Positions 1-17,516 of a stretch of DNA of 55,643 nucleotides are shown one piece after another; position 1 is the first letter of the stretch, and each line of letters starts with the position of its first letter. Both the position numbers and the translations under genes were made by a program. The DNA lies in the IMG/VR virus record IMGVR_UViG_3300030372_005607, positions 1 through 55,643 of that record. One strand, given 5' to 3'. Origin of the DNA: a virus. Its lineage: Duplodnaviria; Caudoviricetes. The notes below the pieces were generated by a model. The model saw nothing but the letters and a program-made list of their open reading frames with translations, was not told the origin of the DNA and made no database searches.

Positions 1-78
1 TTACCGGGATTTAAGATTCCTATTCCATTTGAGATAGGAATTATATTTAAGGTTATTCCAGAAAGAATAATGAGGGCC
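1..78. repeat. Terminal direct repeat, left copy (assembly circularisation overlap)
   Basis: Bases 1-78 are identical to 55566-55643 and lie inside a continuous reading frame. Confidence 0.97.
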
Positions 79-828: not shown

Positions 829-1151
829 TGGCACTTAGATTGAAAAAAGGCGTTTCTTTACGAGGGGTTAAGCCTGAAATTGCCATTGGCTTGCAGATGA
901 TAGAGGGATTCTTTGTAAAGAATCTTATTAGGGAAGTTTGGGTCACTTCTTGTGTTGACGGTAAGCACAAAAGAGGGTCTCTTCACTATGTAGGGTACGC
1001 AGTGGACCTGAGGGTATGGGCCATTAAGGAAAAAGATAGAGAGAGTTTTACTGAAAGGCTTTCGGATTATCTAGGTGATGAGTTCGATTGCTTATTTGAA
1101 CTTGACCACATTCATGTGGAATTTCAACCAAAGGAAAAGCTAAATGATTGA
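828..1151 (+). CDS. Endolysin, peptidase M15-like
   Basis: VTS...HKRGSLHYVGYAVDLR...DHIHVE carries the H/D/H zinc ligands of M15 peptidases; first gene of the lysis cassette; GTG start. Confidence 0.85.
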   Translation: MALRLKKGVSLRGVKPEIAIGLQMIEGFFVKNLIREVWVTSCVDGKHKRGSLHYVGYAVDLRVWAIKEKDRESFTERLSDYLGDEFDCLFELDHIHVEFQPKEKLND

Positions 1152-1332
1152 TTGGATTACTGGAAATTTTGATGGTGTTATTCAAATTATTACGCAGGTT
1201 GTCGGAATATTCGCCATCGTTGCTGTGTGGACTCCGAACTCTGCAGACAACAAGGTTGCAGACCTTTTGCTTGAAGCCGTCAACTTTCTTGGCGCAAACA
1301 TTGGCAAAGCCAAAAACTCTCCGGATGCGTAA
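1144..1332 (+). CDS. Holin-like small membrane protein
   Basis: 62 aa, hydrophobic segment followed by TPNSADNK; between endolysin and spanins. Confidence 0.65.
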   Translation: MIDWITGNFDGVIQIITQVVGIFAIVAVWTPNSADNKVADLLLEAVNFLGANIGKAKNSPDA

Positions 1333-1610
1333 TGTCAGCTTGGTTGACGTTTGGAATAGTTTTGGTGGTGATCTTTCTTGTCACCATCAAAATTTCCGGT
1401 AAAACGGCTAAGGAATTAGGAAGAGTCGATGAAAGGCGTAGGTCGCTCGAAAGGGATATCAAAAGGGTTGATACCGCCTTTGAAAAACTATCGGAACCTC
1501 TTCCTGATAGGCCCACTCTTGCTCGTCGCTGGTTGTTCCGTATTCGGAAAGCACGGGCACTTGATGAGAGTTCCTCCATGTCCGACTCCGACGATGGCAA
1601 TGGTCATTGA
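1332..1610 (+). CDS. i-spanin (Rz-like)
   Basis: N-terminal TM helix, charged coiled coil, overlapped by a lipoprotein ORF. Confidence 0.7.
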   Translation: MSAWLTFGIVLVVIFLVTIKISGKTAKELGRVDERRRSLERDIKRVDTAFEKLSEPLPDRPTLARRWLFRIRKARALDESSSMSDSDDGNGH

Positions 1611-1701
1611 ACTAGAAGAGGGGAGGATACCTGAGAACACTGAAACATTTCTTGCTGAGTTGGAAAGATACTGTTCGGCTATAGATGCTCTTAGAAATTA
1701 A
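1480..1701 (+). CDS. o-spanin (Rz1-like lipoprotein)
   Basis: From TTG 1480: MKNYRNLFLIGPLLLVAG-C lipobox, Pro-rich mature part, overlapping the i-spanin in another frame. Confidence 0.75.
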   Translation: MKNYRNLFLIGPLLLVAGCSVFGKHGHLMRVPPCPTPTMAMVIELEEGRIPENTETFLAELERYCSAIDALRN

Positions 1702-1755
1702 TAGAGTCCCCATAGCTTACCCCCCCAATCAAAACAACTAAAACAGGAGGGGAAA

Positions 1756-2013
1756 TTGGCTTCAAAGAAAAAGCTTCCTTCATTCGAGCAACTGTCAGAG
1801 TCATTCAAAGACTCGACAATACCTAGCAGGATGAGGAACGATTCTGAAATTTCGGAATGGTTGATAGGCATTTTTAAGATGAGAGATCTCGGTGAATTGC
1901 ATATTAAAAACACTGATATCTCAAGGGAGTTGTCCCTATTCACCGGAATGCCAATAACGGGGGACCACATTTCAAGGGCTTATGGTAGATGGAAAACAAA
2001 AGGAAAACTCTAA
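1756..2013 (+). CDS. Hypothetical protein (possible HTH)
   Basis: AGGAGG RBS, TTG start, helical 85 aa. Confidence 0.55.
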   Translation: MASKKKLPSFEQLSESFKDSTIPSRMRNDSEISEWLIGIFKMRDLGELHIKNTDISRELSLFTGMPITGDHISRAYGRWKTKGKL

Positions 2014-2900
2014 AAAGCAAGGAAGAGTTACAGGCTCACGCAGATCCTCAGAAGAGGGCGGCAGTAATTAACGCAATTCACGAACTCAAGCCGCCCCCCT
2101 CTTACGCAAGAAGCAAAAAGAAGAAAGACATTGGAAAAACCATACTGGTTGTTCCAGACTCTCATGCAAAGGTGGGAGTTCCTAACCACAGGTATGAATG
2201 GTTGGGAAGGCTAGCTACAGATATACAGCCGGATCATATCGTTGACATTGGTGACTGGTTCGATATGCACTCAATGAACGGTTATGACAAGCCTGGGTCT
2301 AGGTCTTTCCGTGGAGCTTCTTACTGGAATGACATAGAGATTGGGCTTGACGCTAGGCTTCGCTTCAAAGACCAGATAGATACTTACAACCGTGGCCGAA
2401 GGAAGGAATACAGGTACGAACCTGAATTAACCTTCTGTGTCGGAAACCACGAACAAAGAATATCTCGGTTCATTGAGGAAGAGCCTAGGTTTGAGGGAGT
2501 TATATCACTCGACGATCTCAGATCCGAGGAACTCGGATGGGAGCAAGTTCCATTTCTAGACATAAAGAATATCGAAGGCTGTAATTTCTCCCATTACTTC
2601 ACATCCGGTGTTATGTCAAGGCCAATATCTGGGATGCATCAGGCTGCCTCGCTTCTTACGAAGCGCTTTGAGACGTGCATTCAAGGACATACCCATACCT
2701 ATGATCACTCGGTCAAGAGCACGGCCAGCAGGCATATACACGGCCTTGTGGTTGGGTGCTTCTTCGAGCATGAGGAAAGCTGGGCTGGCCCCGCTAACCA
2801 TATGTGGAGAAGGGGTTTGTGTGTCCTGAGAAACGTAAAGATGGGCGACTTTGACGTGGAGTGGTGGAGCCTTGAAAGAATCAAGTCCTTATACTCGTAG
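1989..2900 (+). CDS. Calcineurin-like metallophosphoesterase
   Basis: PDSH, GDWFD, GNHE, H and GHTH motifs in canonical order. Confidence 0.92.
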   Translation: MENKRKTLKSKEELQAHADPQKRAAVINAIHELKPPPSYARSKKKKDIGKTILVVPDSHAKVGVPNHRYEWLGRLATDIQPDHIVDIGDWFDMHSMNGYDKPGSRSFRGASYWNDIEIGLDARLRFKDQIDTYNRGRRKEYRYEPELTFCVGNHEQRISRFIEEEPRFEGVISLDDLRSEELGWEQVPFLDIKNIEGCNFSHYFTSGVMSRPISGMHQAASLLTKRFETCIQGHTHTYDHSVKSTASRHIHGLVVGCFFEHEESWAGPANHMWRRGLCVLRNVKMGDFDVEWWSLERIKSLYS

Positions 2901-3258
2901 AAAAGATAAAATCAGAAATAGACTTCATCAGATATCTAGATACCTGCAAGACGAATACAAAGTAAAAGTTAGGTTAAGAGTCGAGAAGATGCCAAAATGC
3001 TCCAAGGATTGTCTTGGTGAAATATGCTTTGACACCGGAAAACTTCCACCGCTAATCAGAGTTTGCAATGGCATCTCAAAATCAGAAGCGATATCAACAC
3101 TTCTCCACGAGTTTGCTCACGCTGTTTCACACGTCAGGCATGGGCCATGCTGGGACAGGGATTATCACGGGCACGACAAAAACTTTGCGATTGTTCTCAA
3201 CGAAATAGAGAACAAATACTTTTACGAGGAGGGGGCTGAAGCCAGCCTTGAATACTAA
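2851..3258 (+). CDS. SprT/zincin-like metallopeptidase (true start uncertain)
   Basis: TLLHEFAH...HGHDKNF. Confidence 0.7.
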   Translation: MTWSGGALKESSPYTRRKDKIRNRLHQISRYLQDEYKVKVRLRVEKMPKCSKDCLGEICFDTGKLPPLIRVCNGISKSEAISTLLHEFAHAVSHVRHGPCWDRDYHGHDKNFAIVLNEIENKYFYEEGAEASLEY

Positions 3259-3260
3259 AG

Positions 3261-3479
3261 ATGAATAAAGATTCTATTCTGCCGAAAGAAATGCCTGCAG
3301 AAGAAGCCACTCGATGTCTATACCAAGCAAAGCAATACATGGAAAGTTCTCTCAGTCTTGTCATGAGAGAATCTGTTGCAAATTGTTTAAATGAAATTGT
3401 CTACCATCAACTAGTGACCCAAATGGGAGACATATTAAACGGCCTTAAGCTCTGTGCCGAAACGCTAGAGGAAAAATAG
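3261..3479 (+). CDS. Hypothetical protein
   Basis: Tightly packed in the operon. Confidence 0.55.
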   Translation: MNKDSILPKEMPAEEATRCLYQAKQYMESSLSLVMRESVANCLNEIVYHQLVTQMGDILNGLKLCAETLEEK

Positions 3480-3728: not shown

Positions 3729-3917
3729 TTAGTCCTCCCAGTTTTTAAGAATATATTGTTCAACAGCCCTTCTTACTAACTCAGCACCTGTTAGTTGTTT
3801 CTTGTCGGCTAATTTCTTTAATTTATCAATGTCGCTCTTCAAGAACAAAACATTGTAGTATTGCGTCTCGCCGTTAAGTGAAAACGGCATGAACCTAGCT
3901 CCCGGCATCTTTCTCAT
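3729..3917 (-). CDS. Ribbon-helix-helix DNA-binding protein
   Basis: YNVLF...KLKKLADKKQLTGAELVRRAVEQY fits the CopG/Arc pattern. Confidence 0.7.
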   Translation of the reverse strand: MRKMPGARFMPFSLNGETQYYNVLFLKSDIDKLKKLADKKQLTGAELVRRAVEQYILKNWED

Positions 3918-4128
3918 CCTCCAGATTGATTCTTCTGTGCAAGAACCAGATTGCCTTTTTTAAATCCTTCCGAAGCGATGCCTTCCTCCCCGCCCTAGAT
4001 ATATACTTGACTGCAGATGCCAAATGATGATCAAGCTTCCAGTCTTCGATTACGCAAATTGGCTCGATCTCTCGGCCCTCAATGTAATGCGGTGGGCTGT
4101 AGATGTGTTCGTCCTCATCATCACTCAT
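3895..4128 (-). CDS. DUF3310 family protein
   Basis: SPPHY...IEPI..I...AVKYISRAGRK...DLKKAIWFL. Confidence 0.85.
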   Translation of the reverse strand: MSDDEDEHIYSPPHYIEGREIEPICVIEDWKLDHHLASAVKYISRAGRKASLRKDLKKAIWFLHRRINLEDEKDAGS

Positions 4129-4606
4129 TATAAAATCTTTCCATCAATTGCTTAAAAAGCTTAAGGGCTTCTGGCTTGCTTCTCAATTCTGTTCTCGAAT
4201 TGATGTCTAGCATTGCCTTGAGGCGATCAACTGCTGCCGCTTCTGATCCGACATCAAGCCAATTCCAAAAGCTGTGGTTCGTTCTGCACAGCATCGAAAA
4301 CTTTGCAATGGCTTCGTCTACTTCCTTGGCATCCTTCTGTACTACTGGAAGATCATCCTCCTGTCCAAGCTGCACAAGAACACAGACGTATCGGGTGTTC
4401 GGGGATTGGGTCATCAACGACCTGACTCGTTCGTTCTGGTTCCGCCTGTCATGGCCAAGGTTGGGAGTGTCCAGCACATCCTCTGGATTCAACCTGAGGG
4501 TCACCTTGTGTCCGCCATTTGCGGTCATGCTTGTGCTCACCAATTGAGCTTCAAACTTTATTGTGATCTCTTCTGATTCCATCTTCTCCAAGACCTCATT
4601 GCCCAC
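4121..4606 (-). CDS. Hypothetical phage protein
   Basis: Coupled within the operon; LCR...FWNWL...SRTEL motif. Confidence 0.7.
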   Translation of the reverse strand: MGNEVLEKMESEEITIKFEAQLVSTSMTANGGHKVTLRLNPEDVLDTPNLGHDRRNQNERVRSLMTQSPNTRYVCVLVQLGQEDDLPVVQKDAKEVDEAIAKFSMLCRTNHSFWNWLDVGSEAAAVDRLKAMLDINSRTELRSKPEALKLFKQLMERFYNE

Positions 4607-4845
4607 CTGACTGGGTCAACTCCCCAGCCGACCCAGAAATCCTCCTCATATCCGTGACTGTGACTCTCTGCGTGGTGAAACCTGCACAGTGGAACAGCCA
4701 TGTCATCTCCAGAGGCTTTTTGCCCGAGCCCTCTCTTGATGCCTGTAACCGAGGGCCTCAGGTGGTGAGCATCCACGCCCGTCCTTTCGCAGATCAGACA
4801 TGGATGGCTCCTCACCTCAATCAAATATTGATTGTCTTTTTTCAA
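4558..4845 (-). CDS. DUF968/HNH-like zinc-binding putative nuclease
   Basis: CLIC...AHH...PLCRFHHAESH. Confidence 0.75.
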   Translation of the reverse strand: MKKDNQYLIEVRSHPCLICERTGVDAHHLRPSVTGIKRGLGQKASGDDMAVPLCRFHHAESHSHGYEEDFWVGWGVDPVRWAMRSWRRWNQKRSQ

Positions 4846-5180
4846 AGCGCGAAGGGGTCCTCTTCCTCTTCAACCTTGTGAGACGAAGCCTTTCCGTTTG
4901 CCTTCGCTCCGTTTGCCTTGAAGCTGTTGTCTTCAAGACAAAGTGAAAAGTACGAATCTCCCGTTGACTCATCCTTCCTCTTCCAAAGAGCCACCGAAAT
5001 CCAAGTCTCGTTCTCTTCTTTGAATTCGCTGACAAGATTTTTGATGAACATCGCGCATTCGCGATTCTTGTCATCCGCGTTGTTGCCGCTGAATCCGCCG
5101 ACGCGGATAGACCCTTTGAGGTCTGGGCGACTACCACCAGAATTGGGGTTTACCTGAACATTCCCGTACATTTTTGCCAT
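4842..5180 (-). CDS. Putative ssDNA-binding protein (DUF736-like)
   Basis: PDLKGSI...VALWKR...YFSL and an acidic EEEEDPFAL tail; next to recombination genes. Confidence 0.65.
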   Translation of the reverse strand: MAKMYGNVQVNPNSGGSRPDLKGSIRVGGFSGNNADDKNRECAMFIKNLVSEFKEENETWISVALWKRKDESTGDSYFSLCLEDNSFKANGAKANGKASSHKVEEEEDPFAL

Positions 5181-5816
5181 TTATTTCTCCCTTGTTAAAA
5201 GCTGTCTTTTTTCGTCAATCACTTCTTTGATTTTTTCCGTTACCACAGGGTATGAATCTTTTAATTTTTTAAGTTCTTCTTTATTTTCCTCAAAATATTT
5301 TTTCAATTCACCCATGCTTTTCATTCCATCGATCCACCCAGCGTGAAGATCGAAGATGCTTTTCTCGTGTTTTTTCAAGGCCACTTTTTCATGCGTATGT
5401 TCATCCTGTTCGACATTCTCTCCCTTGCTGAAGTCGTCAGCTTCGTCTTGTCCATAGATTCCGAACTTGTAGGCACCAACCAATTTCAAAACTGCCCTGG
5501 CGAGTGCGCGCTTTTCAGCCATCTCGGCCACGTAGTTTGATTTTGAGTTCCCCCCGCTTCCGCAAAGAGCCGAAGCGTAAGTCTCAATCCTAACATCGCC
5601 CTTGGTTGCGATTGCCTTCATCACAGCAAAATTCTCCCGAAGTTGCTGAGCTTCAAACTCAACTCGGATGTCATTTAGGTATTGTATTTTTTCGATTCCC
5701 GTGCGGCAAATGATGGTTTGCTTCTTGCCTCCCATTTTCAAATCGAAGAGATCTTCTTTTCGCACGAGTTCGTTTTTTTCGATGAGTTCTTCCAAAAAAT
5801 CGTTTTTGTTTTGCAT
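5181..5816 (-). CDS. Putative single-strand annealing recombinase
   Basis: AEMAEKRALARAVLK...IYGQDEADDF; located between exonuclease and SSB. Confidence 0.55.
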   Translation of the reverse strand: MQNKNDFLEELIEKNELVRKEDLFDLKMGGKKQTIICRTGIEKIQYLNDIRVEFEAQQLRENFAVMKAIATKGDVRIETYASALCGSGGNSKSNYVAEMAEKRALARAVLKLVGAYKFGIYGQDEADDFSKGENVEQDEHTHEKVALKKHEKSIFDLHAGWIDGMKSMGELKKYFEENKEELKKLKDSYPVVTEKIKEVIDEKRQLLTREK

Positions 5817-5823
5817 CTTAGTT

Positions 5824-6714
5824 TTACTTCCTCCTGTATCCCTTTTCCCTACGTTTCAACCAATCTAAATTTTGAGTGCAGAACGAACTGACTGGACAAA
5901 AGCTTTCGCACCGCCTGTATCGGCCGACAACCTCCACGATTTCTGCGTTGTCAGCGTCACTGCCATGAAATGCCGCGGTTGCATCTCGCTTCAACCGAAA
6001 GGTATCCAGCAAAATGTCGTCCTCCCAAACTTGCCACTTCTTGCCTCCGGGCCAACGCCCTCCGTGGGAACAATCTGGAAGGTTTTTCTCCGCTTCGCAA
6101 TGAAGACTCATCCGTTCTCTTACGAATTCCTCGGCCTCTCCATCGTCCCACATTGGCAATTGCAGGGTCACCCCGGGATTGCTGGGGTAGTCCCTCGTTC
6201 GCTCTGCTGTGGCCATCGAGAAGTCTCTGATGAATGCGTAAATTTCCAATCCAATCACTTCGGAGTCTGGCTTCTCTCGCTCGACCAGCCATCTGTAGAT
6301 GTTCAATTGCTGCTCCCACTTTGAAGTGTCGCGAAGCGAATACGCGCCCGTCAGCTTGTAATCCCCGATGATGATTTTTTCTTTTCCGTTTTCATCCTTT
6401 AAGACAATCTGCAGATCCATGGCCCCAGAGATTTTCTTGCCCTCAAAAATGGTGAACAGTCTTTCCTCGGCAATCTCTCCAGGGCCAGCGTCCTGAGACA
6501 AAAGCTCGTGGAAGATGGTGCTGAGGTATTTCCAGGGTGAAACATACGGATCATCCTCTATTTCTGATGAATGAATCTCAGTCAGTATTTTGATTCGAGG
6601 CTCATCCATGAGGGATGTTGCCGTGAAATCAGAATCGCCCGAATCGTAGTGAGGTTTCTGGGCGTATCGGATGAGTGGGCCAGGAGCGTTGTGGTTGTTG
6701 ATAATCTTTGCCAT
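5824..6714 (-). CDS. PD-(D/E)XK (Cas4-like) exonuclease
   Basis: ISGAMD...DYK...QLNIY and C-terminal RC..FC.V..FC; ATG 6714 has GAGGAAGG upstream. Confidence 0.85.
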   Translation of the reverse strand: MAKIINNHNAPGPLIRYAQKPHYDSGDSDFTATSLMDEPRIKILTEIHSSEIEDDPYVSPWKYLSTIFHELLSQDAGPGEIAEERLFTIFEGKKISGAMDLQIVLKDENGKEKIIIGDYKLTGAYSLRDTSKWEQQLNIYRWLVEREKPDSEVIGLEIYAFIRDFSMATAERTRDYPSNPGVTLQLPMWDDGEAEEFVRERMSLHCEAEKNLPDCSHGGRWPGGKKWQVWEDDILLDTFRLKRDATAAFHGSDADNAEIVEVVGRYRRCESFCPVSSFCTQNLDWLKRREKGYRRK

Positions 6715-6866
6715 TTGCCTTCCTCTGATTTTGCACACTACCTAAACGACAGCCTATGTCAACGAATCTTTAGATCTAAAATTTGTTTTGAATTGAATTA
6801 ACTGTTAAACACGACATATTCCGTTGTTATTGTTACATTTTTACTGATTTTAAATTTGGAATAAAA

Positions 6867-7241
6867 ATGATTCTTTGGACTCAAACAATTTTAGGAGAGC
6901 CTGCGAGCAAGGCAAATTCTAGAAGGCTTGTTTCGCTTGGCGGAAAGCCCCGTTTCATCAAAAGCCAGAAGGCTTTGGAGTACTCTCGGGATTTTGCTGC
7001 TCAGGTTTTGCCTCCCGAACAGGAAATATGCGAGGACATTTGTGTCAGAATAAAAATTTGGTATCGCACGAGAAGACCCGATCTCGACCCAAGCTTAATC
7101 TTTGACCTTCTTCAAAAGGAAAGAGTTATAAAAAATGACAGACAAATCAAGGAGATACACGCATTCCATGGCCTCGACAAGGAGAAACCCAGATCTCAAA
7201 TCGAAATTTCGACGGTGAGCGCAGACTCTGGATTGCAGTGA
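6867..7241 (+). CDS. rusA: RusA-like Holliday junction resolvase
   Basis: GEPASKANSR...RRPDLD..LIFDLLQ...NDRQI...LDKEKPR. Confidence 0.85.
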   Translation: MILWTQTILGEPASKANSRRLVSLGGKPRFIKSQKALEYSRDFAAQVLPPEQEICEDICVRIKIWYRTRRPDLDPSLIFDLLQKERVIKNDRQIKEIHAFHGLDKEKPRSQIEISTVSADSGLQ

Positions 7242-7465
7242 TCCTGCAAGCCTTCAGGGATTTCTGCAGCGAAAACCACAAGGATGTCGCTGGGGTATTC
7301 AAATGGCTTTCAACACCAGATTTCATCCACACCGCCCACATGGCACAGGTCGATGAACACTTGATTCTGGAAACATTCAAAAGGCTTGGCCAATTCAAAC
7401 CTTCTGTGCGAAAAAAAATGCTTCGAGAGATATCGCGGCAAATTTACGGTGGCCCGTCTCAATGA
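7238..7465 (+). CDS. Hypothetical protein
   Basis: GTGA overlap with rusA. Confidence 0.6.
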   Translation: MILQAFRDFCSENHKDVAGVFKWLSTPDFIHTAHMAQVDEHLILETFKRLGQFKPSVRKKMLREISRQIYGGPSQ

Positions 7466-7495
7466 AAAAACCGGCCAGCCACGAGGGCTGACCGG
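7465..7495 (-). terminator. Intrinsic terminator, minus strand
   Basis: CCGGTCAGCC-CTCGT-GGCTGGCCGG-TTTTTT; one pair is a G-U wobble only on the minus strand. Confidence 0.8.
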
Positions 7496-7544
7496 CAGGA
7501 GGAAGGCACCACAAAGGGGCCTATGCTGGTCGGCAAAAACCAGC
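7465..7544 (-). ncRNA. Candidate ~80-nt small RNA with an exposed anti-Shine-Dalgarno segment
   Basis: Own promoter; 5' hairpin GCTGGT/ACCAGC starting at the predicted +1; TGCCTTCCTCCTG segment; intrinsic terminator; no ORF inside. Confidence 0.6.
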
Positions 7545-7550
7545 CTCTGG

Positions 7551-7579
7551 AAATTATCACATTTAAAAATTTTAGGCAA
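7551..7579 (-). promoter_or_regulatory. Sigma70-like promoter for the candidate sRNA
   Basis: TTGCCT-17 nt-TAATTT with TGn extension; predicted +1 near 7544. Confidence 0.55.
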
Positions 7580-7584
7580 GCGAC

Positions 7585-7614
7585 TTGACAACCGAAACAA
7601 ATCGATACTATAGG
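7585..7614 (+). promoter_or_regulatory. Sigma70-like promoter for primase-helicase
   Basis: Perfect TTGACA at 7585-7590; -10 is TACTAT (15-nt spacer) or TATAGG (18-nt spacer), overlapped by TAGGTACCT. Confidence 0.5.
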
Positions 7615-7728
7615 TACCTCTCGGCGTGGCTTCCTGTCCCTATTAGCTTTCCTGAAGCCTTGAGGATTTGGTTGCTCCGATTTTTTAGGTTTTAAAGAAA
7701 TAGGTATATTTTTTAGGTACCTACAGGG
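7608..7728. repeat. Pair of TAGGTACCT(A) palindromic sites upstream of primase-helicase
   Basis: TAGGTACCT 7611-7619 and TAGGTACCTA 7714-7723; 7712-7728 is identical to 20260-20276. Confidence 0.8.
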
Positions 7729-7735
7729 GGGGGGA

Positions 7736-9484
7736 ATGGCAAGCAGTATTGAGCTTTTGGTGAGAGATGAATTCGGTGGCAAGACGGGGACAAGAAACTT
7801 CAACTGTCCATCCTGTTCTCCGGAAAGATCGCCACGGGGCGCACGCAAACGACCACTGACCGTCACGTTTGAGAAGGACGCGGCGGTGTTTTTTTGTCAT
7901 CACTGTGAGCAGAAGGGTCAGGTCAGACTGGCGGAAAAAAAGAGGACGTTGAAGAGGGTGCCTAACTATTCAAAAGTTGGCGAAAAAACAATTGACAGAA
8001 TCATGGCAAACCGATCAATCAACTTGCGTAATATGCCAGATTCGGTGATGGATTCGATTTGCCAGAGCGAGGATGTTTTCTTCACAGAACTCGGAGGTAA
8101 GTCACCAGCGATTGGCTTCCGTTACCCCGCCGACGACGCGATCAAGTGGCGATCCATGGAGGGCAAAAACTTCACCGCGTCTGGAGCCGCAAGATCTTTG
8201 TTTCCAGAGGGCCAAAGCATTGAAAAGGGTCAAACAGTACATTTGGTCGAGGGTGAATTCGATGCGCTTGCCCTCATTTCCTGCGGCATGGTTGCTTTTT
8301 CAACCCCGGCTGGCGCGAACATACCCGCCTCCGGGGAGTTGCCAGAATATTTGAAACCTCTAGTCAACGACCTTCGATCAGGAATCATTGAGGTTGTCAT
8401 TGCTGTTGATTCCGACGAGAGGGGTGTGAAATTTCGAGATAGCTTGGTGGACCACATCGGCAGGGAACGAGTGAGTTTCATCGATTGGTCAGAGTTTGGC
8501 GTCAAGGACGCTAATGAGCTTTTGGTCAAATCAGGCAGTGAATCCCTTGCCGATGCAGTTGTTTCGGGAGCGAGACCGGTTCTGTTTGAGGGCATTGTCA
8601 GCCCTCGGCAGGTGGCGAGTTCAATTGATCAGATTCGCACTGGAGGATTTCGACAGGGCACTGGGATCGGCATCCCCTCACTCGACAGGTTGATGACCAT
8701 TTGCTCTGACCAGATTTCAGTTGTCACCGGAGTTCCAGGCTCTGGAAAAAGCGAACTGATCGATGCATTCATGGTCAGGCTTGCTGAGAAGGATGATTGG
8801 AAATTCGCAATTTTTTCTGCTGAAAATCCCATCGACATCCATGTCGGCAAGCTGGCAGAAAAATTCATTGGCGCTCCAGTCTTTGAGGGTGAAAACCGGA
8901 TGTCGCGAGGCCAGATGGCTCGTGCTTCTGCGTGGCTCGACGATCATTTCTTTTTTCTCGATGCGTCTTCCAACAACAGCCTGAAGAGCATTTTGGACAG
9001 GACTGCCGTCCTTGTCGAACATCGTCAGGTCAACGGTTTGCTGATTGACCCCTTCAATTACACCGACGTTTCCCTCGACACGGACAGCATCTCGACGATG
9101 CTTACAGAACTGCATGCCTTTGCCTTGAAATTTCACATCCACATCTGGATTGTGGCTCATCCGCAAAAAATGTACCGCCAGGAGGGTGGTCGCATGCCCA
9201 CTCCAACGGGAATGGACATCTCTGGTTCGGCCGCTTGGTTTGCCAAGGCTGATTTCGGTCTGACAGTCGAGAGAACCGATGACGATGAGACCAAGGTGAT
9301 CGTTTGGAAATGCCGATTCAAATGGCTTGGGGACCTTGGAACCGCCTACCTGAGGTACGATTCCAACTCTGGAAGATTTGAGGAAGGAAGCAGTGCCGAA
9401 AAAATCGCGGAAACGATTGAAAATGTGACAGTGAGTGGTGAATCTGATGGCATCAAAAAAGAATCGTTCTCGTTTGATTTTTGA
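7736..9484 (+). CDS. Primase-helicase (T7 gp4/Twinkle type)
   Basis: CPSC/CHHC zinc finger; TOPRIM VEGEFD, DSD, KDANE; Walker A GVPGSGKS; IDP, VAHP, DISGSA SF4 motifs. Confidence 0.95.
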   Translation: MASSIELLVRDEFGGKTGTRNFNCPSCSPERSPRGARKRPLTVTFEKDAAVFFCHHCEQKGQVRLAEKKRTLKRVPNYSKVGEKTIDRIMANRSINLRNMPDSVMDSICQSEDVFFTELGGKSPAIGFRYPADDAIKWRSMEGKNFTASGAARSLFPEGQSIEKGQTVHLVEGEFDALALISCGMVAFSTPAGANIPASGELPEYLKPLVNDLRSGIIEVVIAVDSDERGVKFRDSLVDHIGRERVSFIDWSEFGVKDANELLVKSGSESLADAVVSGARPVLFEGIVSPRQVASSIDQIRTGGFRQGTGIGIPSLDRLMTICSDQISVVTGVPGSGKSELIDAFMVRLAEKDDWKFAIFSAENPIDIHVGKLAEKFIGAPVFEGENRMSRGQMARASAWLDDHFFFLDASSNNSLKSILDRTAVLVEHRQVNGLLIDPFNYTDVSLDTDSISTMLTELHAFALKFHIHIWIVAHPQKMYRQEGGRMPTPTGMDISGSAAWFAKADFGLTVERTDDDETKVIVWKCRFKWLGDLGTAYLRYDSNSGRFEEGSSAEKIAETIENVTVSGESDGIKKESFSFDF

Positions 9485-9941
9485 AAAGATAATCAACTGC
9501 GGCACTGAGGAATTACGGGAAAAGTTCCAAGTCGATTTTGAAAACATCGATATGAGAGGCGTTTTCAAACGCGCTCGTGTGATGGACCAAACAAAGATCG
9601 ACAAGTTGTTTCTAGACAAAGAGCTTAGTGCTCCGCAATACGGCGCCGCCGAAGAATACCTGTCTCTGCTCGTTAAGAGCGGAACCTTCCTGCGAAGTCC
9701 GGGCTTTGAGTCTGGCCCGGACTCCACAGGAAGGGACAAGGCCAAGTCAATGGCAGCAAGGATCATGGCCGTTTCCGGAGCTAGAAACAAACTCCGGAAA
9801 AGTTGCGGCAACGAGGTCTGCTACGTGGTTGACATGGCCATTGGGGGTGATGCAATCATCGACATTTCAATGCTGAGAATCGGACTCGATGCCCTTGCGG
9901 AATATTTTGGAACTCGTGGAATGTCCGACCCCAGGGGCTGA
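9435..9941 (+). CDS. Hypothetical protein, possible late-transcription regulator (start uncertain)
   Basis: Last gene of the replication operon; LSAPQYGAAEEY...LRIGLDALAEYFG. Confidence 0.55.
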   Translation: MVNLMASKKNRSRLIFEKIINCGTEELREKFQVDFENIDMRGVFKRARVMDQTKIDKLFLDKELSAPQYGAAEEYLSLLVKSGTFLRSPGFESGPDSTGRDKAKSMAARIMAVSGARNKLRKSCGNEVCYVVDMAIGGDAIIDISMLRIGLDALAEYFGTRGMSDPRG

Positions 9942-9946
9942 TGGTG

Positions 9947-11410
9947 TCAATACAGTCCTCGGTTGACGCCCATCTCGAAAGCCTCCCCTCCGATTCTCGT
10001 GCATTCTTTGTGGAATTCATCTGACAAATGGTTGTCAGCATTCTCGTGGGCCAGTTCATGAATAATTAGGTCGAGCATTTTTGAGTCTGGCTGGTCGAAC
10101 CATTTTCTGCCGAGCGTGTTCAGGTTGAAGTCCAGTGTTCCAATCGAATCGGGCGAATCGTGAATTTCGGATTTCGCGTAACATGCTAAATGGTTCCTGG
10201 CCCCGTATGTAATTCTGACATTGCAAGAGAACCCATGCGCTTGCATGGACAACTCTCTAGCGAGACCTGCCGCATGCTTCATCCCGCTATCCCATTCGCT
10301 CTCATCGAGCAACCTGACTTGGGGTGCATTGGGGTCGTCGGAATACGGAGATGGCGTTGAGAATTGGCTTTGTCCGGAAGGTTTGGTGGAAGAGAATCTT
10401 CTAGAGTTTTCCCACTGCTCCTTGGACAGTGACCTTCCTGCAATGACAGTTGCACCCGCATTGACAGCCCTTGAGTTTGCTTCCTTGTCTGACGGGTCGT
10501 ATGCCACCCTGTTGCGACCAAACCTTTGGTCAAGGAATGCGTTAAATGCCTCCTTATCCACCTCCCTGGACGAAGAAGCCTCCTGCGCCCAAGTGGCGTT
10601 CGCATCCTCGTGTGTAATTTCCCTGAACATTTCGTTTAAAACGATTACCCTGATCTTCCTAAGGAAGGAAGGGGGTACGTTGTCGCGATTCATGTTCATT
10701 GGAATTTTCTGACCGATGTCAATGTCGTACTTGTCGCCTGTTTCCACCACGGGTATTCCCATTTCGTATATCCTTGCCTTCCCTCCCCTTGGAACTTCGT
10801 AAATCGTTACATCTGCTCTGCGAACAGTTTTCTTCAGAACTCCCTCGAAGTCTGAGACCAATGTAGGCAGTCTGTGAGATGATGAGGACAGTGGTGTTCT
10901 TGAGTTCGTTTGAACTCCGTTCACAAAAACTGGAATGTCCGAAATAATGTTCATCAATTCCTGATTCACGATCTCCATCTCGTCTCGCTTCATCCGGATT
11001 GTTCCTGTGAATTTTGAACCAGCCTCAGTGCATTCCTTCGACTTGACCCTCTGGCCATCTTCGTTGAAGCAAATGGTTCCCTTGGTAGAGACGATCTTTG
11101 CGTCCTTGCACAGTGCCAGAACGAGCTTCTCTCCCAGGTTGAACCGACCCCTTTTGGTGGGATCAGCTTTCTTCTCGCTTTCTGCGAAAAGGGTGTAAGA
11201 ATGTGAAAGGTCGTTGAATCCATCGGGGTCATCGTCCTCAACTGTAATCTTCACAGATGGCGAGTTGGGAACTGGCTCCATTGTCACATGAACCGAGGTG
11301 GCCTCAGTGTCGAGAGCGTTCTGGACCAGTTCAAGGACTAGCTTTGCGTGTTGACCGTCTAGAATTTTGGACAGACCTTCTTTTGAAACATCGAACCATT
11401 GGCTTGCCAT
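9947..11410 (-). CDS. GHKL ATPase fused to a C-terminal zincin-like HExxH domain
   Basis: ELVQNALD, EDDDPDGF, GRFNLGEK, GSKF; C-terminal IIHELAH...HLSDEF; AGGAGG RBS. Confidence 0.85.
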   Translation of the reverse strand: MASQWFDVSKEGLSKILDGQHAKLVLELVQNALDTEATSVHVTMEPVPNSPSVKITVEDDDPDGFNDLSHSYTLFAESEKKADPTKRGRFNLGEKLVLALCKDAKIVSTKGTICFNEDGQRVKSKECTEAGSKFTGTIRMKRDEMEIVNQELMNIISDIPVFVNGVQTNSRTPLSSSSHRLPTLVSDFEGVLKKTVRRADVTIYEVPRGGKARIYEMGIPVVETGDKYDIDIGQKIPMNMNRDNVPPSFLRKIRVIVLNEMFREITHEDANATWAQEASSSREVDKEAFNAFLDQRFGRNRVAYDPSDKEANSRAVNAGATVIAGRSLSKEQWENSRRFSSTKPSGQSQFSTPSPYSDDPNAPQVRLLDESEWDSGMKHAAGLARELSMQAHGFSCNVRITYGARNHLACYAKSEIHDSPDSIGTLDFNLNTLGRKWFDQPDSKMLDLIIHELAHENADNHLSDEFHKECTRIGGEAFEMGVNRGLY

Positions 11411-11418
11411 GCTTCCTC

Positions 11419-11718
11419 CTATTTTACTGCCAGGAAAAGCATAATTGCTATTCCCGTTACGGCAGATGTTATCGCTGTCAGTGCAGCACCTATCAAGAGC
11501 AGGGACTTGAACAGAACCCCTGAGTTGCTAATTGTTTTATCATGATCGAAATCATCGCAATCTGGATTGCTTGCTCCTTTAGTTTCATCCTCGGTTGGGC
11601 ACTTAGCTCCATCACCAGGGATGACGACTAGGGCTTCGCTAATGTCCAATCCTTTAAATCGCTTTCTTCCGACGAGCCCGTCTCTTCGCAACATTTGTTC
11701 TCCTGTTTTTGATTTCAT
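11419..11718 (-). CDS. Membrane protein with C-terminal TM segment
   Basis: Long hydrophobic C-terminus; packed in the operon. Confidence 0.55.
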   Translation of the reverse strand: MKSKTGEQMLRRDGLVGRKRFKGLDISEALVVIPGDGAKCPTEDETKGASNPDCDDFDHDKTISNSGVLFKSLLLIGAALTAITSAVTGIAIMLFLAVK

Positions 11719-11914
11719 CGATCCCTATGTTGATTGCGTCTCGGAAGATATTCGTCATGGGGGTGCCCATCTGGTCAGCCAGTGAGGCAACCTCATCGTG
11801 GATCTCTTCTGATAGTAGGATCTTTACGTGCCAGGACTCGCCATTGTAGATGGGTCTTCGCCCCAGCTTCTTCTTGATTGTTTCCACTTTCTTCTCCATT
11901 AAATCATTTCCCAT
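11654..11914 (-). CDS. RHH-type DNA-binding protein
   Basis: GRRP...VKILLSEEIHDEVASLADQMGTPMTNIFRDAI. Confidence 0.65.
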   Translation of the reverse strand: MGNDLMEKKVETIKKKLGRRPIYNGESWHVKILLSEEIHDEVASLADQMGTPMTNIFRDAINIGIDEIKNRRTNVAKRRARRKKAI

Positions 11915-12260
11915 TAGTTAATGCTTTGTTGATTGCGTAATTTAAATTCCTAACAATTGATTCAAATTCTTCAAGCCTTGTCTTCTTCTTTGGTAGCTCC
12001 TCATCTTTGGTCCCGATCATAAATGCCTGGGCTCTTTGTGCGGCGTAGAGAATATCTGGGGCCGCACTCAATAATGAAAGAATTTCCATTCTCTCATTAT
12101 GCCTAAAGTTTTCCCCATTTTCGTTTCTTGATCCTTCAATGCAAGCTATCTTTGATTGTGCTCTTAGGGGAAGCCCGCTTTCTTTCTGTATGTTCCTTGT
12201 TACAACCCAGTTGCCTTCCTTGCACCAGTTTCCGTAATCGACGTTTGACTTATATTTCAT
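11904..12260 (-). CDS. Hypothetical protein
   Basis: LLSAAPDILYA motif, common in small phage early proteins. Confidence 0.7.
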   Translation of the reverse strand: MKYKSNVDYGNWCKEGNWVVTRNIQKESGLPLRAQSKIACIEGSRNENGENFRHNERMEILSLLSAAPDILYAAQRAQAFMIGTKDEELPKKKTRLEEFESIVRNLNYAINKALTNGK

Positions 12261-12276
12261 TCGCTTTCTCTTTCTT

Positions 12277-12567
12277 CTATGCGTCTGACTCTTTGACGCT
12301 TTTCAAGTCCCTGATAAAACAAAGTTCTTCGTATTCTTTGGTGATATAAACTGCTTGTTTCCTTTCTCCGTACTTTACGTAAAACGACTCGATGAACAGA
12401 TCACAATCTTCTTCTTCTTCAAGGAAGACACGTTCTCCATCCCTCTTGCTTTCCTTTGAGAATGAGAACGGTGACATGTTGACCATGCGAAGGTCATCCA
12501 GATCGACCTCAAGCCATTCAGACCAAGGGTCTTTGTGTATTGTGAAACCTCTAATATCAATTGACAC
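12277..12567 (-). CDS. Hypothetical acidic phage protein
   Basis: DPxxxWLEV...FLEEEEDC; GGGAGG RBS before GTG. Confidence 0.7.
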   Translation of the reverse strand: MSIDIRGFTIHKDPWSEWLEVDLDDLRMVNMSPFSFSKESKRDGERVFLEEEEDCDLFIESFYVKYGERKQAVYITKEYEELCFIRDLKSVKESDA

Positions 12568-12588
12568 GGAGTGTGCCTCCCTTACTCT
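12561..12588 (+). promoter_or_regulatory. Putative tRNA promoter
   Basis: TTGACA-16 nt-TACTCT, ~50 nt upstream of the tRNA. Confidence 0.5.
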
Positions 12589-12640
12589 CCCCCGAGCGAG
12601 GGAGGCATGTCGGAAACTTTCCGACCACTCCGAATCACGC

Positions 12641-12717
12641 GGACCCGTAGCTCAGTTGGTGAGAGCAACTGTCTTATAAGCAGTAGGTCGCGGGTTCAAG
12701 CCCCGCCGGGTCCACCA
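12641..12717 (+). tRNA. tRNA-Ile, anticodon UAU
   Basis: Acceptor GGACCCG/CGGGTCC, D arm GCTC/GAGC, anticodon arm ACTGT-CT TAT AA-GCAGT, T loop GGTTCAAG, discriminator A, encoded CCA. Confidence 0.95.
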
Positions 12718-13710
12718 CTATCGGCTAACAATATTCCTGAGCCTTTTGAAGGCACGATTCTTTAGCCTGTTTCCATCGCCCATGGTATTCGATTTCCACA
12801 TAGACTCAAGCTTCTTAACGGTTGCTTTAGACTGGTCCATTTGTTCCGCCTTGTGATCAAGCCAAGCGGTAACTGACTGGTAGGCTCCCCAGATTGTTTC
12901 CCCAGCGCCCTGATTGCCGAGGCCAAAGTATCTGTCAAGCTCTTCGATGTCGGCCGCCCTCTTTCCGTGGGTGACCTCCTGCCCATGCTTAGACTCCCGA
13001 ACAGACTTACCTCGGTGATCATCAAGAAGATTCTCTGAGAATGTTCTGAAGCTTTTTCTATCCATCTTGCAATGAGCCATGGACCGGTAGATTTCAAGAG
13101 TCGCAGAGACATTCTTTGACGACTCCTCTACTAGGCATTTTGCCATACTGAACCTTTCCTCAATGAACCGTCTGTGGTGAATACTGATAGCTCCCTTGCT
13201 CTGGTTCGCTAGTCCAGGGAGTTGATTGTTGCAAGCAATTCTACCTATGAAAGATAGGAGTTTGTTTGCGGATGCTGTTGTGTGATCTCCAAAAACCAGA
13301 AGCTTTGGAACAAGAACATCAACTCCCTCCTCTTGCATTATTGTTTCCTCTGGCATCGACATAGAGATCCATGCAGATCCGCCACCTGCGAGGATCCCAC
13401 ACTGGTCGAATGTCGCTCCGAAACTCGCTAGTGAATCACAGATAGAAAAAACCGACTTGTATTGCTGCAAACCGTAAGCACTTGTGGCAATGCCATATGG
13501 CGCTGACGTTTCCACATTCCTAATGATTGATCTGTTTTTAATTTTTCTGAAATGTCCGTCAACTTCCATAAAGCAATCTGTCTTTTCAACTTCGTAGCCA
13601 ATCTCGGGAACCATTTCGATCACGTCATCAACCGATAGCGCCTCCCCTACGTCATTGATAATTCCAGGGTACGTCCCTGTGGATCTTGAAATAACACTTG
13701 CGCGACTCAT
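12718..13710 (-). CDS. DUF932 (phage/plasmid-like) protein
   Basis: G.L.GG..AW, RIACNNQL, ISIHH, TIWGAYQSVTAWLDH, G...K..AF motifs. Confidence 0.85.
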   Translation of the reverse strand: MSRASVISRSTGTYPGIINDVGEALSVDDVIEMVPEIGYEVEKTDCFMEVDGHFRKIKNRSIIRNVETSAPYGIATSAYGLQQYKSVFSICDSLASFGATFDQCGILAGGGSAWISMSMPEETIMQEEGVDVLVPKLLVFGDHTTASANKLLSFIGRIACNNQLPGLANQSKGAISIHHRRFIEERFSMAKCLVEESSKNVSATLEIYRSMAHCKMDRKSFRTFSENLLDDHRGKSVRESKHGQEVTHGKRAADIEELDRYFGLGNQGAGETIWGAYQSVTAWLDHKAEQMDQSKATVKKLESMWKSNTMGDGNRLKNRAFKRLRNIVSR

Positions 13711-13723
13711 TCTTGCCTCCTCC

Positions 13724-13795
13724 TTATTGATAGGCCCTTGTCATCAGCCATATGATAAATCCGTAAAGAAAAATTATCTGTACGTTCATTCTCAT
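13724..13795 (-). CDS. Candidate 23-aa hydrophobic peptide
   Basis: MRMNVQIIFLYGFIIWLMTRAYQ fills the gap between two genes; GAGGA upstream. Confidence 0.45.
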   Translation of the reverse strand: MRMNVQIIFLYGFIIWLMTRAYQ

Positions 13796-13796
13796 T

Positions 13797-14021
13797 TTAA
13801 TCCTCGAATACCACGTTTTCTTCTTTGACCATTCTGTCAATTATCTTGTAGTAGATTTCATCACGATCTTTATTTGTCCATTCGGTTCCCAAACTGTCGA
13901 GTTCCATTTCGATTGTTTTTTTAAGCTTGCTGATCGAGATCGTCATAATGGAATTTCTTGAGTATGAGAATTTCTTTGATAGCCTCGGCCTTGAAAATCT
14001 TTGACGATATTTATTGGGCAT
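13797..14021 (-). CDS. Hypothetical protein
   Basis: Operon packing. Confidence 0.55.
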   Translation of the reverse strand: MPNKYRQRFSRPRLSKKFSYSRNSIMTISISKLKKTIEMELDSLGTEWTNKDRDEIYYKIIDRMVKEENVVFED

Positions 14022-14199
14022 TGTCGATGCCTTTCATGATTTCCCTAGCTCTCGTCTCTGACCTTTCGATCTCACGGTCAACTACTCTTGCGATTTTCAT
14101 AAAAGACTTCTGGATTTCTTCTCTGGATTTTGGATTAGTTCGATACTCATTGAGCATAAACGGGACAAGAAGCTCCCAACCACCTGCATTCGATTGCAT
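14011..14199 (-). CDS. Hypothetical protein (start moved to ATG 14199)
   Basis: AGGAGG RBS before MQSNAGGW. Confidence 0.65.
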   Translation of the reverse strand: MQSNAGGWELLVPFMLNEYRTNPKSREEIQKSFMKIARVVDREIERSETRAREIMKGIDNAQ

Positions 14200-14225
14200 T
14201 GCCGTCCTCCTTTTTTTCGTTTTTG

Positions 14226-14414
14226 TTAGTCTGTCTCGATCATAGACCGTCCGACGATGCGCCCGTTCTTGACAACGACGGTCAACGGTTTGTCGCTTGT
14301 CTTGAACCAATCAGCGGCAAAATCCCAAGCCTCCTCGCCTAACGAATCTACGGTGCAGTGCCATTCAACGTCGTCCCAATCCTGCTTTGTTATCTTGACG
14401 TGTTTCTTTTCCAT
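14226..14414 (-). CDS. Hypothetical protein
   Basis: AGGAGG RBS. Confidence 0.7.
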   Translation of the reverse strand: MEKKHVKITKQDWDDVEWHCTVDSLGEEAWDFAADWFKTSDKPLTVVVKNGRIVGRSMIETD

Positions 14415-14435
14415 CGTCCTTCCTCCTCACTTTCT

Positions 14436-14735
14436 TCACTCATCATTATCATCCTCCAAAGTGGGCCTAGTGTTTAACTCATTAACAACTACTTTTATTA
14501 ACGCATTCAGAGAATTAATTGTATTTTCAAGGCTTTGGATGTGATCTATAGTCCTGCGAATTAAAGGTTTTATTTCTGCATAATTTTCATTACCTCTGAG
14601 TCTTCTCAACTCGACCATAAAAACGGGTTTCTTATTCCATTTATCTAACTCCTTACGCATCACTTTTATTAGCGTCCTGGCGGTCGTGATATTTGATGCT
14701 TCTACTTCATATTCTTCACTCGTCTCTACTGTCAT
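14436..14735 (-). CDS. Hypothetical coiled-coil protein
   Basis: Operon packing, AT-rich. Confidence 0.65.
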   Translation of the reverse strand: MTVETSEEYEVEASNITTARTLIKVMRKELDKWNKKPVFMVELRRLRGNENYAEIKPLIRRTIDHIQSLENTINSLNALIKVVVNELNTRPTLEDDNDE

Positions 14736-14738
14736 GTT

Positions 14739-15594: not shown

Positions 15595-15646
15595 GCAACA
15601 ATTACGGCGACTGTCGTGATCGCTTCACACATCGGCGTCAACCTCC

Positions 15647-15805: not shown

Positions 15806-15819
15806 TTTTCCTCCCTTAA

Positions 15820-17512: not shown

Positions 17513-17516
17513 GGTC

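Follow-up and report, generated by a model that had tools for sequence, protein, structure and literature searches.

A probable small RNA gene with a predicted anti-Shine-Dalgarno seed beside the primase-helicase gene of an uncultured marine phage

We asked what is encoded in the 270-nucleotide (nt) gap between open reading frame (ORF) 75 and the primase-helicase gene in the tailed-phage record IMGVR_UViG_3300030372_005607, where the two flanking genes both lie on the plus strand and the gap itself carries, on the minus strand, what looks like a complete small transcription unit. The virus record is complete, with 55,643 bp, terminal repeats and a G+C content of 46.5%, the sequencing runs that contain this DNA are marine metagenomes, and its full length is what we refer to as the window. 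An earlier note on this DNA had proposed that the unit gives rise to a small RNA (sRNA) that acts in trans on the ribosome-binding sites (RBSs) of the phage's own genes. From the analyses presented here we conclude that the segment is very probably a real, conserved non-coding RNA gene, and we hold with moderate confidence that its product is a released, folded sRNA whose exposed pyrimidine seed masks RBSs of phage mRNAs. The parts of the unit, and the divergent promoter next to it, are the following.

7574..7579, minus strand: -35-like box TTGCCT, read from the sequence
7551..7561, minus strand: extended -10 region TGTGATAATTT, read from the sequence
7464..7546, minus strand: predicted non-coding RNA of ~80 nt, with +1 near 7546-7544 and the 3' end in the U-run 7469-7464 (fold and ORF check)
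7525..7544, minus strand: 5' hairpin of 7 pairs with a loop of 6 (minimum free energy (MFE) and centroid folds)
7504..7522, minus strand: weak second stem containing GGCCCCUUUG (fold; probability of being unpaired, P(unpaired), of CCCUUU = 0.66)
7496..7508, minus strand: seed UGCCUUCCUCCUG, the complement of plus-strand 7496-7508 (fold, 9-mer scan and flank tests)
7464..7496, minus strand: intrinsic terminator with a stem at 7496-7470 of 11 pairs (8 G-C), a loop of 5 and U6 at 7469-7464 (terminator scan)
7584..7613, plus strand: primase-helicase promoter TTGACA-N18-TATAGG, with a -10 that overlaps the palindrome TAGGTACCT (sequence and palindrome search)

In the folded RNA, the UCCUCCU linker (7503-7497) lies directly 5' of the terminator and was unpaired in both the MFE and the centroid structure, with a P(unpaired) of 0.99. 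RNAfold gave the whole unit -39.9 kcal/mol with z = -4.73, a value that none of 200 shuffles equalled, compared with -32.9 kcal/mol for the plus-strand fold. The terminator ranked top among 18 terminator-like sites found between 4000 and 16000, and because its stem contains two G-U pairs it is a structure of the minus strand; the plus-strand side of the hairpin carries no T-run, and the same 4000-16000 scan gave no plus-strand terminator between ORF75 and the primase promoter. With regards to coding capacity, two minus-strand ORFs of at least 50 amino acids (aa) were found in the unit of the window, both implausible, and none in the equivalent unit of the relative L038, the two units having no ORF in common. 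Reading the plus-strand CAGGAGG at 7496 as an RBS was tried and rejected, there being no start codon 3-13 nt behind it; the equivalent CAGGAGG of the RNA locus is likewise without a start codon at that distance in 9 of the 9 relatives listed, and the short plus-strand ORFs beyond it are, by reading, not alike in the window, L038 and L003. Natural variants in DNA runs X3 and X5 had 0 substitutions within the unit. The ORF-free minus-strand unit that the earlier note had described, with hairpin, weak stem, anti-Shine-Dalgarno (anti-SD) string and terminator, was found with every part in its place, and the plus-strand orientation of both flanking genes supports its being a stand-alone non-coding unit.

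The putative promoter of the sRNA can be read in two ways, either as TTGCCT-17 nt-TG-A-TAATTT (7559-7551) or as TGT-GATAAT (7561-7553) with a 15-nt spacer, and calling it a promoter depends on its conservation across three lineages, namely the window, L038/L039 and L040. Where the window has TTGCCT as -35 box, L038/L039 have TTGACA and L040 has TTGCGT, with an unchanged distance to the TAAWTT -10; the -10 equivalents are TGTGTAATTT in L038 and TGTTAAATT in L040, and the form TTGnnn-16/17-TAAWTT, with a TG near the upstream side of the -10, is common to all three. The boxes TTGCCT-17-TGn-TAATTT, which the earlier note had placed back to back with the primase-helicase promoter, are present in just that arrangement, with the -35 box only 4 nt from the plus-strand TTGACA of the primase promoter, and a divergent plus-strand promoter, TTGACA-N17/18-TATAGGTACCT, likewise occurs in L038/L039 and L040. 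The palindrome at the primase promoter, TAGGTACCT(A), had 9 strand hits in the window against 0.2 expected, and its copies lie at 7611-7619, 7714-7723, 20129-20138, 20247-20256 and 20262-20271, two of them bracketing the 5' region of the primase-helicase gene. Palindrome copies are also seen between the sRNA promoter and the primase start in L038/L039 (~2060-2170 in L038) and L040 (~1160-1170), and the palindrome is likely the operator of a phage regulator.

Conservation of the unit was judged from protein-guided scans that covered 34 viral and 80 metagenome loci around relatives of the primase-helicase. L037 was found to be the same phage (99.6% over 521 nt), and no other relative gave a nucleotide alignment in the intergenic region. 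Upstream of the primase or helicase gene, four lineages, here called linker-type (the window, L038/L039, L040 and L070), have a minus-strand hairpin that is followed by a C-rich linker and then a terminator. The primases of L038/L039 and L040 are 66/65% and 64% identical in aa to that of the window, and these loci have the same order of parts as the window, from -35 and -10 via hairpins and a single-stranded pyrimidine linker to a terminator, whose distance to the primase start is 271-276 nt in L038/L039 and L040 and 267 nt in the window. The linkers read UCCUCCU in the window and AUCCUCCU and UUGCCCCCC in L038/L039 and L040, with z-scores of -4.9 to -6.0; L070, having a helicase-only gene and the RusA-ORF75 synteny of the window, shows a hairpin, ACCUCCC and a terminator. 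All 4 of the 4 linker-type RNAs had a minus-strand MFE below that of the plus strand. Conservation in relatives was one of the points on which the earlier note had staked its proposal, and the layout of the unit is indeed kept at 64-66% primase identity. The small unit of L038 stays beside the primase gene, again between plus-strand genes, although the RusA-ORF75 module has moved, and it is therefore neither a terminator for minus-strand genes nor bound to ORF75. In L038/L039 that module (4428-5011 in L038, compared with 6867-7465 in the window) is inverted and lies, convergently, on the far side of the primase-ORF164 operon. A protein search gave further primases of 63-69% identity (P0002-P0009), and viral contig scans with P0004 and P0003 returned only the known clade, at no more than 54% identity.

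On the minus strand, at most 700 nt upstream of the primase, CCTCCTG or CCTCCCG was found in 17 of 21 non-identical regions of the clade with at least 51% identity, as compared with 1 of 47 upstream regions in relatives of at most 43% identity; some of these regions span less than 700 nt, and the clade entries include many near-duplicates. In the 51-57% clade, CCUCCU forms the loop of a hairpin of 5-9 pairs that is followed by a long GA/CU hairpin with the loop UAUCCCUUUC, and an outer stem often encloses both hairpins of this Y-shaped RNA. The alignment of Y-type RNAs (A1) held 11 distinct sequences, with members from L003-L010, L036 and L044-L058, and RNAalifold gave 17 pairs on it, 9 of them with compensatory changes. 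In a pair count 91.4% of the cells were paired, compared with 83.4% after shuffling (0 of 500 as high), and pairs changed on both sides numbered 10 against 4.6 expected, with slid controls at 56-65%. The minus-strand MFE was lower than that of the plus strand in 15 of 15 Y-type RNAs, owing to G-U pairs, and the P(unpaired) of the motif was 0.67-1.00 in 12 of 12 RNAs, compared with whole-RNA means of 0.31-0.54. A covariance model, R1, consisting of hairpin 1 with the CCUCCU loop and hairpin 2 with the UAUCCCUUUC loop, gave 18 strong matches (at least 53.6 bits) over 89 sources, all of them clade members, and matched 9 of 70 further viral loci, all of which were the same clade re-fetched.

The early genes of the Y-type phages have two Shine-Dalgarno (SD) flavours, GAGGAGGA and GAAAGGGA, to which loop 1 and loop 2, respectively, are complementary; the GAAAGGGA-type RBSs that loop 2 complements include that of the exonuclease. 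A minus-strand promoter, TTGACA-N17-TATAnn, is found at the primase start of the Y-type relatives, and a plus-strand promoter between the RNA and the primase start was not seen there by eye, no scan having been made. In L009 (~3110-3160) and L057 (~2790-2840) the minus strand has, just upstream of the promoter of the RNA, four to five TTGACTCTGT-like units in tandem, which look like iterons or reiterated -35 boxes.

We then compared the seed with the translation starts of the phage itself. Gene map and start regions came from a crude caller of our own that goes by SD strength in picking starts, and the start regions of the window that are complementary to the seed, together with that of the primase-helicase, are listed here.

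6712..6727, minus strand: exonuclease start (ATG 6714-6712) with GAGGAAGGCA, match 6716-6725, 10/10 (complementarity to seed)
5814..5836, minus strand: start of gene 5181-5816 with CAGGAGGAAG, match 5827-5836, 10/10, 13 nt before ATG 5816 (complementarity)
11408..11420, minus strand: start of the GHKL ATPase gene 9947-11410 with AGGAGGAAG, match 11412-11420, 9/9 (complementarity)
13708..13724, minus strand: start of the DUF932 gene with AGGAGGAGGCA, match 13714-13724, one bulge (complementarity)
14197..14211, minus strand: start of a 62-codon ORF (ATG 14199) with AGGAGGACGGCA, match 14200-14211, 11/12 (complementarity)
14412..14427, minus strand: start of ORF 14226-14414 with AGGAGGAAGG, match 14418-14427, 10/10 (complementarity)
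7724..7738, plus strand: primase-helicase start, CA + G9 run + A + ATG (RNAduplex, seed partner)

The six RBS matches on the phage's own genes that the earlier note had claimed were all recovered, each at its coordinates, including that of ORF 14199, a real 62-codon frame missed by the crude caller. As for the gene names it had used, the exonuclease holds, its protein matching phrog_2139 with the start at ATG 6714 and not GTG 6738, and the name 'putative recombinase' for 5181-5816 found no Pfam or PHROG support. The seventh start, that of the primase-helicase, has an RBS (CA + G9, 7724-7734) that pairs with all 11 seed bases, four of the pairs being G-U. Using RNAduplex with the window seed, ORF 14226-14414 came out at rank 1 with -19.6 kcal/mol and the primase-helicase start at rank 2 of 74 with -19.3 kcal/mol, followed by the 5181-5816, GHKL and DUF932 starts among the best partners in the window. 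With a 12-mer seed the primase start ranked 1 of 75 in the window, 1 of 7 in L040 and 1 of 6 in L070; G6 runs precede the primase or helicase gene in L038, L040 and L070, and in L040 a linker C6 stands opposite the G6 RBS of the primase. The exonuclease start has at least 8 contiguous Watson-Crick pairs with the RNA of the same phage in 8 of 14 loci, by way of the linker in window-type phages and of loop 2 in Y-type phages. The G-run RBS of the primase-helicase and the RBS of the exonuclease are the recurrent best predicted partners. No orthologous gene with CAGGAGG at its start was found across the relatives. The run of nine G in the primase-helicase RBS spans 7726-7734, and a variant in DNA run X5 is one G shorter.

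How far this fit reaches beyond the SD core was assessed in several ways. When all 9-mers of the RNA were scanned blindly, complements at translation starts were found for the seed part only. With CCUCC fixed and the other eight positions random, 22 of 65,536 13-mers (0.034%) matched at least 4 start regions over at least 9 nt, and 2 of 65,536 matched 3 start regions over at least 10 nt; with pyrimidine-only flanks, 3 of 256 did as well as the real seed. Better pairing than that of SD-preserving shuffles is what the earlier note had predicted, and the seed does outperform randomisation (22/65,536 and 3/256). Fifteen pseudo-seeds, cut from real start regions with GGAGG and kept in register with the seed, matched at most 2 other regions each, as compared with 4 for the complement of the RNA, and the seed thus lies nearer to the RBS consensus of this phage than any single RBS does.

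The flanks of the seed differ between phages, with CUU-CCUCC facing GGAGG-AAG in the window, CAU-CCUCC facing GGAGG-AUG in L038 and CCUCC-CGA facing UCG-GGAGG in L070. In an own-against-cross comparison, which covers the few lineages window, L038 and L070, the window seed matched 4 of 76 of its own starts and 0 of 10 L038 starts over at least 9 nt, the L038 seed matched 2 of 10 of its own starts and 0 of 76 window starts over the same length, and the L070 seed matched 2 of 6 of its own starts over at least 8 nt and none elsewhere. The flank test for L038 gave 0.7%.

The anatomy of the unit, the conservation of the minus strand, the exposure of the motif, the covariation in the RNA of relatives and the excess of seed fit to own starts are all computed results. 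A mechanism consistent with them would begin with host RNA polymerase starting at the extended -10 promoter, back to back with the primase-helicase promoter, and transcribing leftward along the minus strand until the strong intrinsic terminator. Besides the terminator hairpin the RNA would form one or two hairpins at its 5' end, leaving CCUUCCUCCUG exposed and UCCUCCU fully single-stranded, and this pyrimidine stretch would act as an anti-SD seed, pairing with the RBSs of phage mRNAs and keeping 30S subunits off them; the pairing may also create RNase cleavage sites. Predicted partners would be the exonuclease, 5181-5816, the GHKL ATPase, DUF932, the two small ORFs and the neighbouring primase-helicase with its G9 RBS, with the net effect that early, recombination and replication genes having strong SDs would be turned down. 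The proposal of the earlier note, a trans-acting RNA that shuts off early and recombination genes, agrees in part with the results, namely with the unit as found, with its conservation and with the fit to own starts; its transcription, pairing in vivo, repressive direction and timing we infer from sequence.

Among known regulators, sRNAs with an anti-SD or C-rich seed come closest, a class defined by an independent non-coding unit with promoter and terminator, a motif exposed in a loop or linker, and complementarity to several SD regions beyond the SD core. The present unit is non-coding and has a terminator, its putative promoter is kept in three lineages yet stays below the scan threshold, the motif is exposed in 12 of 12 RNAs and the complementarity extends past the core at several SD regions. 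Staphylococcus aureus RNAIII is a similar case. RsaE/RoxS of Bacillota have C-rich motifs, of which one lies in a loop and one is unpaired between two hairpins (RsaE motifs 1 and 2), and their binding to the SD sequences of several mRNAs prevents initiation complexes, as described in the portion of the source available to us (PMC6158497). Judged from that portion, likeness to the present unit lies in the independent small unit with an intrinsic terminator and a C-rich motif in a loop or inter-hairpin linker. RsaE/RoxS differ in being cell-encoded and not phage-encoded, in having no sequence or Rfam kinship with the unit and in carrying the seed CCCC/UCCC instead of a full CCUCCU, and the predicted targets of the present RNA are phage early and replication genes.

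The c4 RNA of P1 and P7 is phage-encoded and presents complementary sequences in loops that block translation at an RBS, with one target region in its own operon and a specificity that underlies heteroimmunity, according to the part of a review at hand (PMC12197685). On that partial account it resembles the present RNA in being encoded by a phage, in its loop-placed complementarity and in having an RBS as target, and differs in its one specific target, compared with a generic anti-SD having many candidates here; the Rfam models of c4 had no threshold match in the window. Rfam at gathering thresholds found only tRNA, and Rfam scans by E-value of the window (7350-7800) and of L053 (2400-3050) stayed at chance level, with lowest E-values of 0.88 and 0.25, far below gathering scores. 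Literature searches for a family of anti-SD phage sRNAs, within the terms used and with supplements excluded, returned no paper describing one. PAK_P3 sRNA2 was considered as an anti-SD phage sRNA and dropped, since in the portion of the source available its conserved stretch resembles a tRNA T-psi-C loop.

OOP of phage lambda, ~77-80 nt long, has its own promoter and intrinsic terminator, runs against the main direction just upstream of the replication genes, and acts through a long stretch of antisense overlap at the cII 3' end. The window RNA is similarly short, with its own predicted promoter and terminator, opposite to the flanking genes and just upstream of a replication gene. It differs as follows: of the ORF75 stop codon (7463-7465) its 3' end (7469-7464) can cover no more than the final two bases, in L038 a distance of 2.4 kb and the primase gene itself separate ORF75 from the unit, and the part conserved here is a short exposed seed. 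In the CopA/CopT system of plasmid R1, translation of a replication protein is limited by a small RNA that is encoded beside its gene and pairs close to the RBS. This system offers one possible reading of the fit to the G-run RBS of the primase, with the difference that CopA/CopT overlap as cis-antisense RNAs whereas here the promoters are divergent and ~8-11 pairs are shared, several of them G-U. The T4 endoribonuclease RegB cuts GGAG-type SDs of early phage mRNAs and helps the switch from early to middle expression; it is alike only in the proposed outcome, being a protein that cuts the SD, compared with an RNA that would mask it.

Several points weigh against the unit being an sRNA that masks RBSs. 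Its transcription is predicted from the DNA, and the putative promoter is below the threshold of the sigma-70 scan in the window and in L038, with the -10 of the window scoring 3 of 6. The motif is not invariant: the four clade regions with neither CCUCCUG nor CCUCCCG have CCUCCUA (L009 and L057), C6 (L040) or a UGCCCU loop (L055), and the last two lack CCUCC altogether. The Y-type RNAs have no canonical terminator. At E <= 1, model R1 matched neither the window nor L038, L039 or L040, and the two architectures are therefore linked by place, strand, promoter type and motif only. Covariation within the species is absent, DNA runs X3, X4 and X5 having 0 substitutions in the unit, and the contrast between unit and flank is small (0 in 362 nt compared with 3 in 210 nt); RNA run X11, whose sample also gave DNA run X3, had no mapped reads, which weighs neither way. 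As to targets, any CCUCC-bearing RNA matches strong SDs, the set of start regions depends on a crude caller favouring strong SDs, and the sets of the relatives comprise only 6-10 genes. With the 12-mer seed the primase start of L038 fell outside the top five of 10, and in the remaining 6 of 14 loci the fit at the exonuclease start was 5-7 nt. Finally, the earlier note had suggested late-gene RBSs as a comparison. The 28 starts of the minus-strand early block were indeed predicted to pair more strongly than the 33 of the late block (Mann-Whitney p = 5e-4), but a generic anti-SD gave the same trend (p = 1.6e-3), and because it too pairs better with early genes this contrast is not specific to the RNA.

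These points have to be weighed together with other explanations of the locus. It is unlikely, in our judgement, that the unit, through its RNA or through being transcribed, instead acts only in cis on plus-strand read-through from the upstream operon (RusA-ORF75 in the window, other plus-strand genes in L038), either as an OOP-like antisense RNA or as an insulator by convergent transcription that would leave the primase-helicase to its own promoter under operator control, with its anti-SD look being incidental. The gap from ORF75 to the primase promoter contains no plus-strand terminator, and read-through RNA would consequently be fully complementary to the sRNA; the unit lies between an upstream plus-strand operon and the primase or helicase gene in every lineage; the Y-type primase mRNA, for which no plus-strand promoter was seen by eye, may start upstream and overlap the RNA; and position and size are reminiscent of lambda OOP. 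A purely cis-acting unit leaves unexplained, however, why the exposed CCUCCU(G) is conserved while the rest is replaced and why the seed flanks fit distant start regions, and the overlap with ORF75 does not exceed its stop codon, with ORF75 not adjacent in L038. A cis role may exist in addition to the trans role. We regard it as quite unlikely that the exposed CCUCCU (UCCCUUUC in relatives) serves as a decoy mimicking the 16S tail, soaking up host mRNAs with strong SDs or binding a protein that recognises the tail, such as a ribosomal protein, a host nuclease or a defence factor, in which case the phage genes would not be the intended targets. Host mRNAs with strong SDs had been named as possible targets in the earlier note as well. 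That the conserved core is exactly a generic anti-SD, and that the two Y-type loops together resemble a CCUCCUUUC-type tail, would suit such a mimic, which on the other hand does not predict flanks that vary by phage outside the core and follow its own start regions, or the C6 that replaces the core in L040 and fits the G6 RBS of the primase and not GGAGG.

An origin-associated transcript, in which a short RNA would open the duplex or prime DNA synthesis and act at the level of DNA or an R-loop, appears very unlikely to us, even with the unit found directly upstream of a replication gene in all lineages. AT-rich direct repeats do lie nearby in the window (ATTTTTTAGGT twice), with 72% A+T at 7660-7719, the array upstream of the RNA promoter in L009 and L057 is iteron-like, and the GA-rich and CU-rich arms of Y-type hairpin 2 could favour stable RNA-DNA hybrids. 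The strong terminator and the G-U-dependent helices with compensatory changes point instead to a released folded RNA, the cumulative GC skew tracks gene orientation with no origin signal here, and the fit to distant start regions would be left unexplained. It is hardly credible, finally, that there is no gene at all and that a hairpin with a T-run merely stops stray antisense transcription, CCUCCUG being a leftover or a chance RBS-like string. The promoter is sub-consensus, the RNA itself is a prediction, and antisense transcription across the primase gene is conceivable from the convergent genes at 9941/9947, which have no terminator between them; yet position and motif are kept at 51-66% primase identity, with covariation and with the motif exposed in 12 of 12 RNAs, and no plus-strand start codon follows the CAGGAGG of the locus by 3-13 nt in the window or in any of the 9 relatives listed. 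All of these alternatives leave the own-against-cross fit of the seed flanks unexplained.

The released sRNA with an RBS-masking seed is hence the reading that we retain. A wider version of it, in which a clade-wide riboregulator has a seed that co-evolves with the phage's own early RBSs (those of the exonuclease operon, the primase-helicase and others) and controls translation of the early programme as a master switch, the RNA equivalent of T4 RegB, we consider a tentative and somewhat doubtful possibility.

The setting of the unit within the crude gene map is as follows.

70-3479, plus strand: gene block (crude gene map)
3729-6714, minus strand: gene block (crude gene map)
between the minus blocks, plus strand: short island of RusA, ORF75, primase-helicase and ORF164 (crude gene map)
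6867-7241, plus strand: RusA (Pfam RusA)
7238-7465, plus strand: ORF75, stop codon 7463-7465 (crude gene map)
7736-9484, plus strand: primase-helicase (Toprim + DnaB_C, Pfam)
9947-21313, minus strand: long gene block (crude gene map)
21924-49586, plus strand: late block (crude gene map)

ORF75 is translationally coupled to RusA via a GTGA overlap and is itself kept in relatives, and no family was found for it in Pfam, PHROGs or the Atlas. Downstream of the primase-helicase, ORF164 on the plus strand and the GHKL ATPase gene on the minus strand converge at 9941/9947 with their ends 5 nt apart, the 4000-16000 scan found no terminator-like site between them, and transcription from either side may run as antisense into the opposite block. 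A lone tRNA-Ile (anticodon UAU) is encoded at 12641-12717 on the plus strand, within the minus-strand early block. For 49587-55643 the crude caller gave only two ORFs (35-41 aa), and the GC skew rises there as in plus-strand coding DNA; genes in this region may be atypical or may have been overlooked by the caller. The phage collection held no match to the window at the DNA level, and tblastn with the primase-helicase against cultured relatives gave at best 31% identity.

To our knowledge, few phage sRNAs have a defined role, and the known cases come mostly from temperate coliphages. A review, in the part available to us, likewise gives few phage-encoded small RNAs with a defined role (PMC12197685). 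By position, strand, covariation, motif exposure and seeds that follow the RBSs of each phage, the comparative data presented here speak for a conserved RNA gene among marine phages that are abundant and uncultured. They provide a concrete, clonable case, comprising an RNA of 80 nt, its six or seven candidate start regions and, as natural seed variants, CCUCCU, CCUCCC and C6, for which no host culture is necessary. If the proposed mechanism is true, these phages would time their early genes by masking one class of RBS with one RNA, and the strength and flavour of the SD of a phage gene would be part of a regulatory code.

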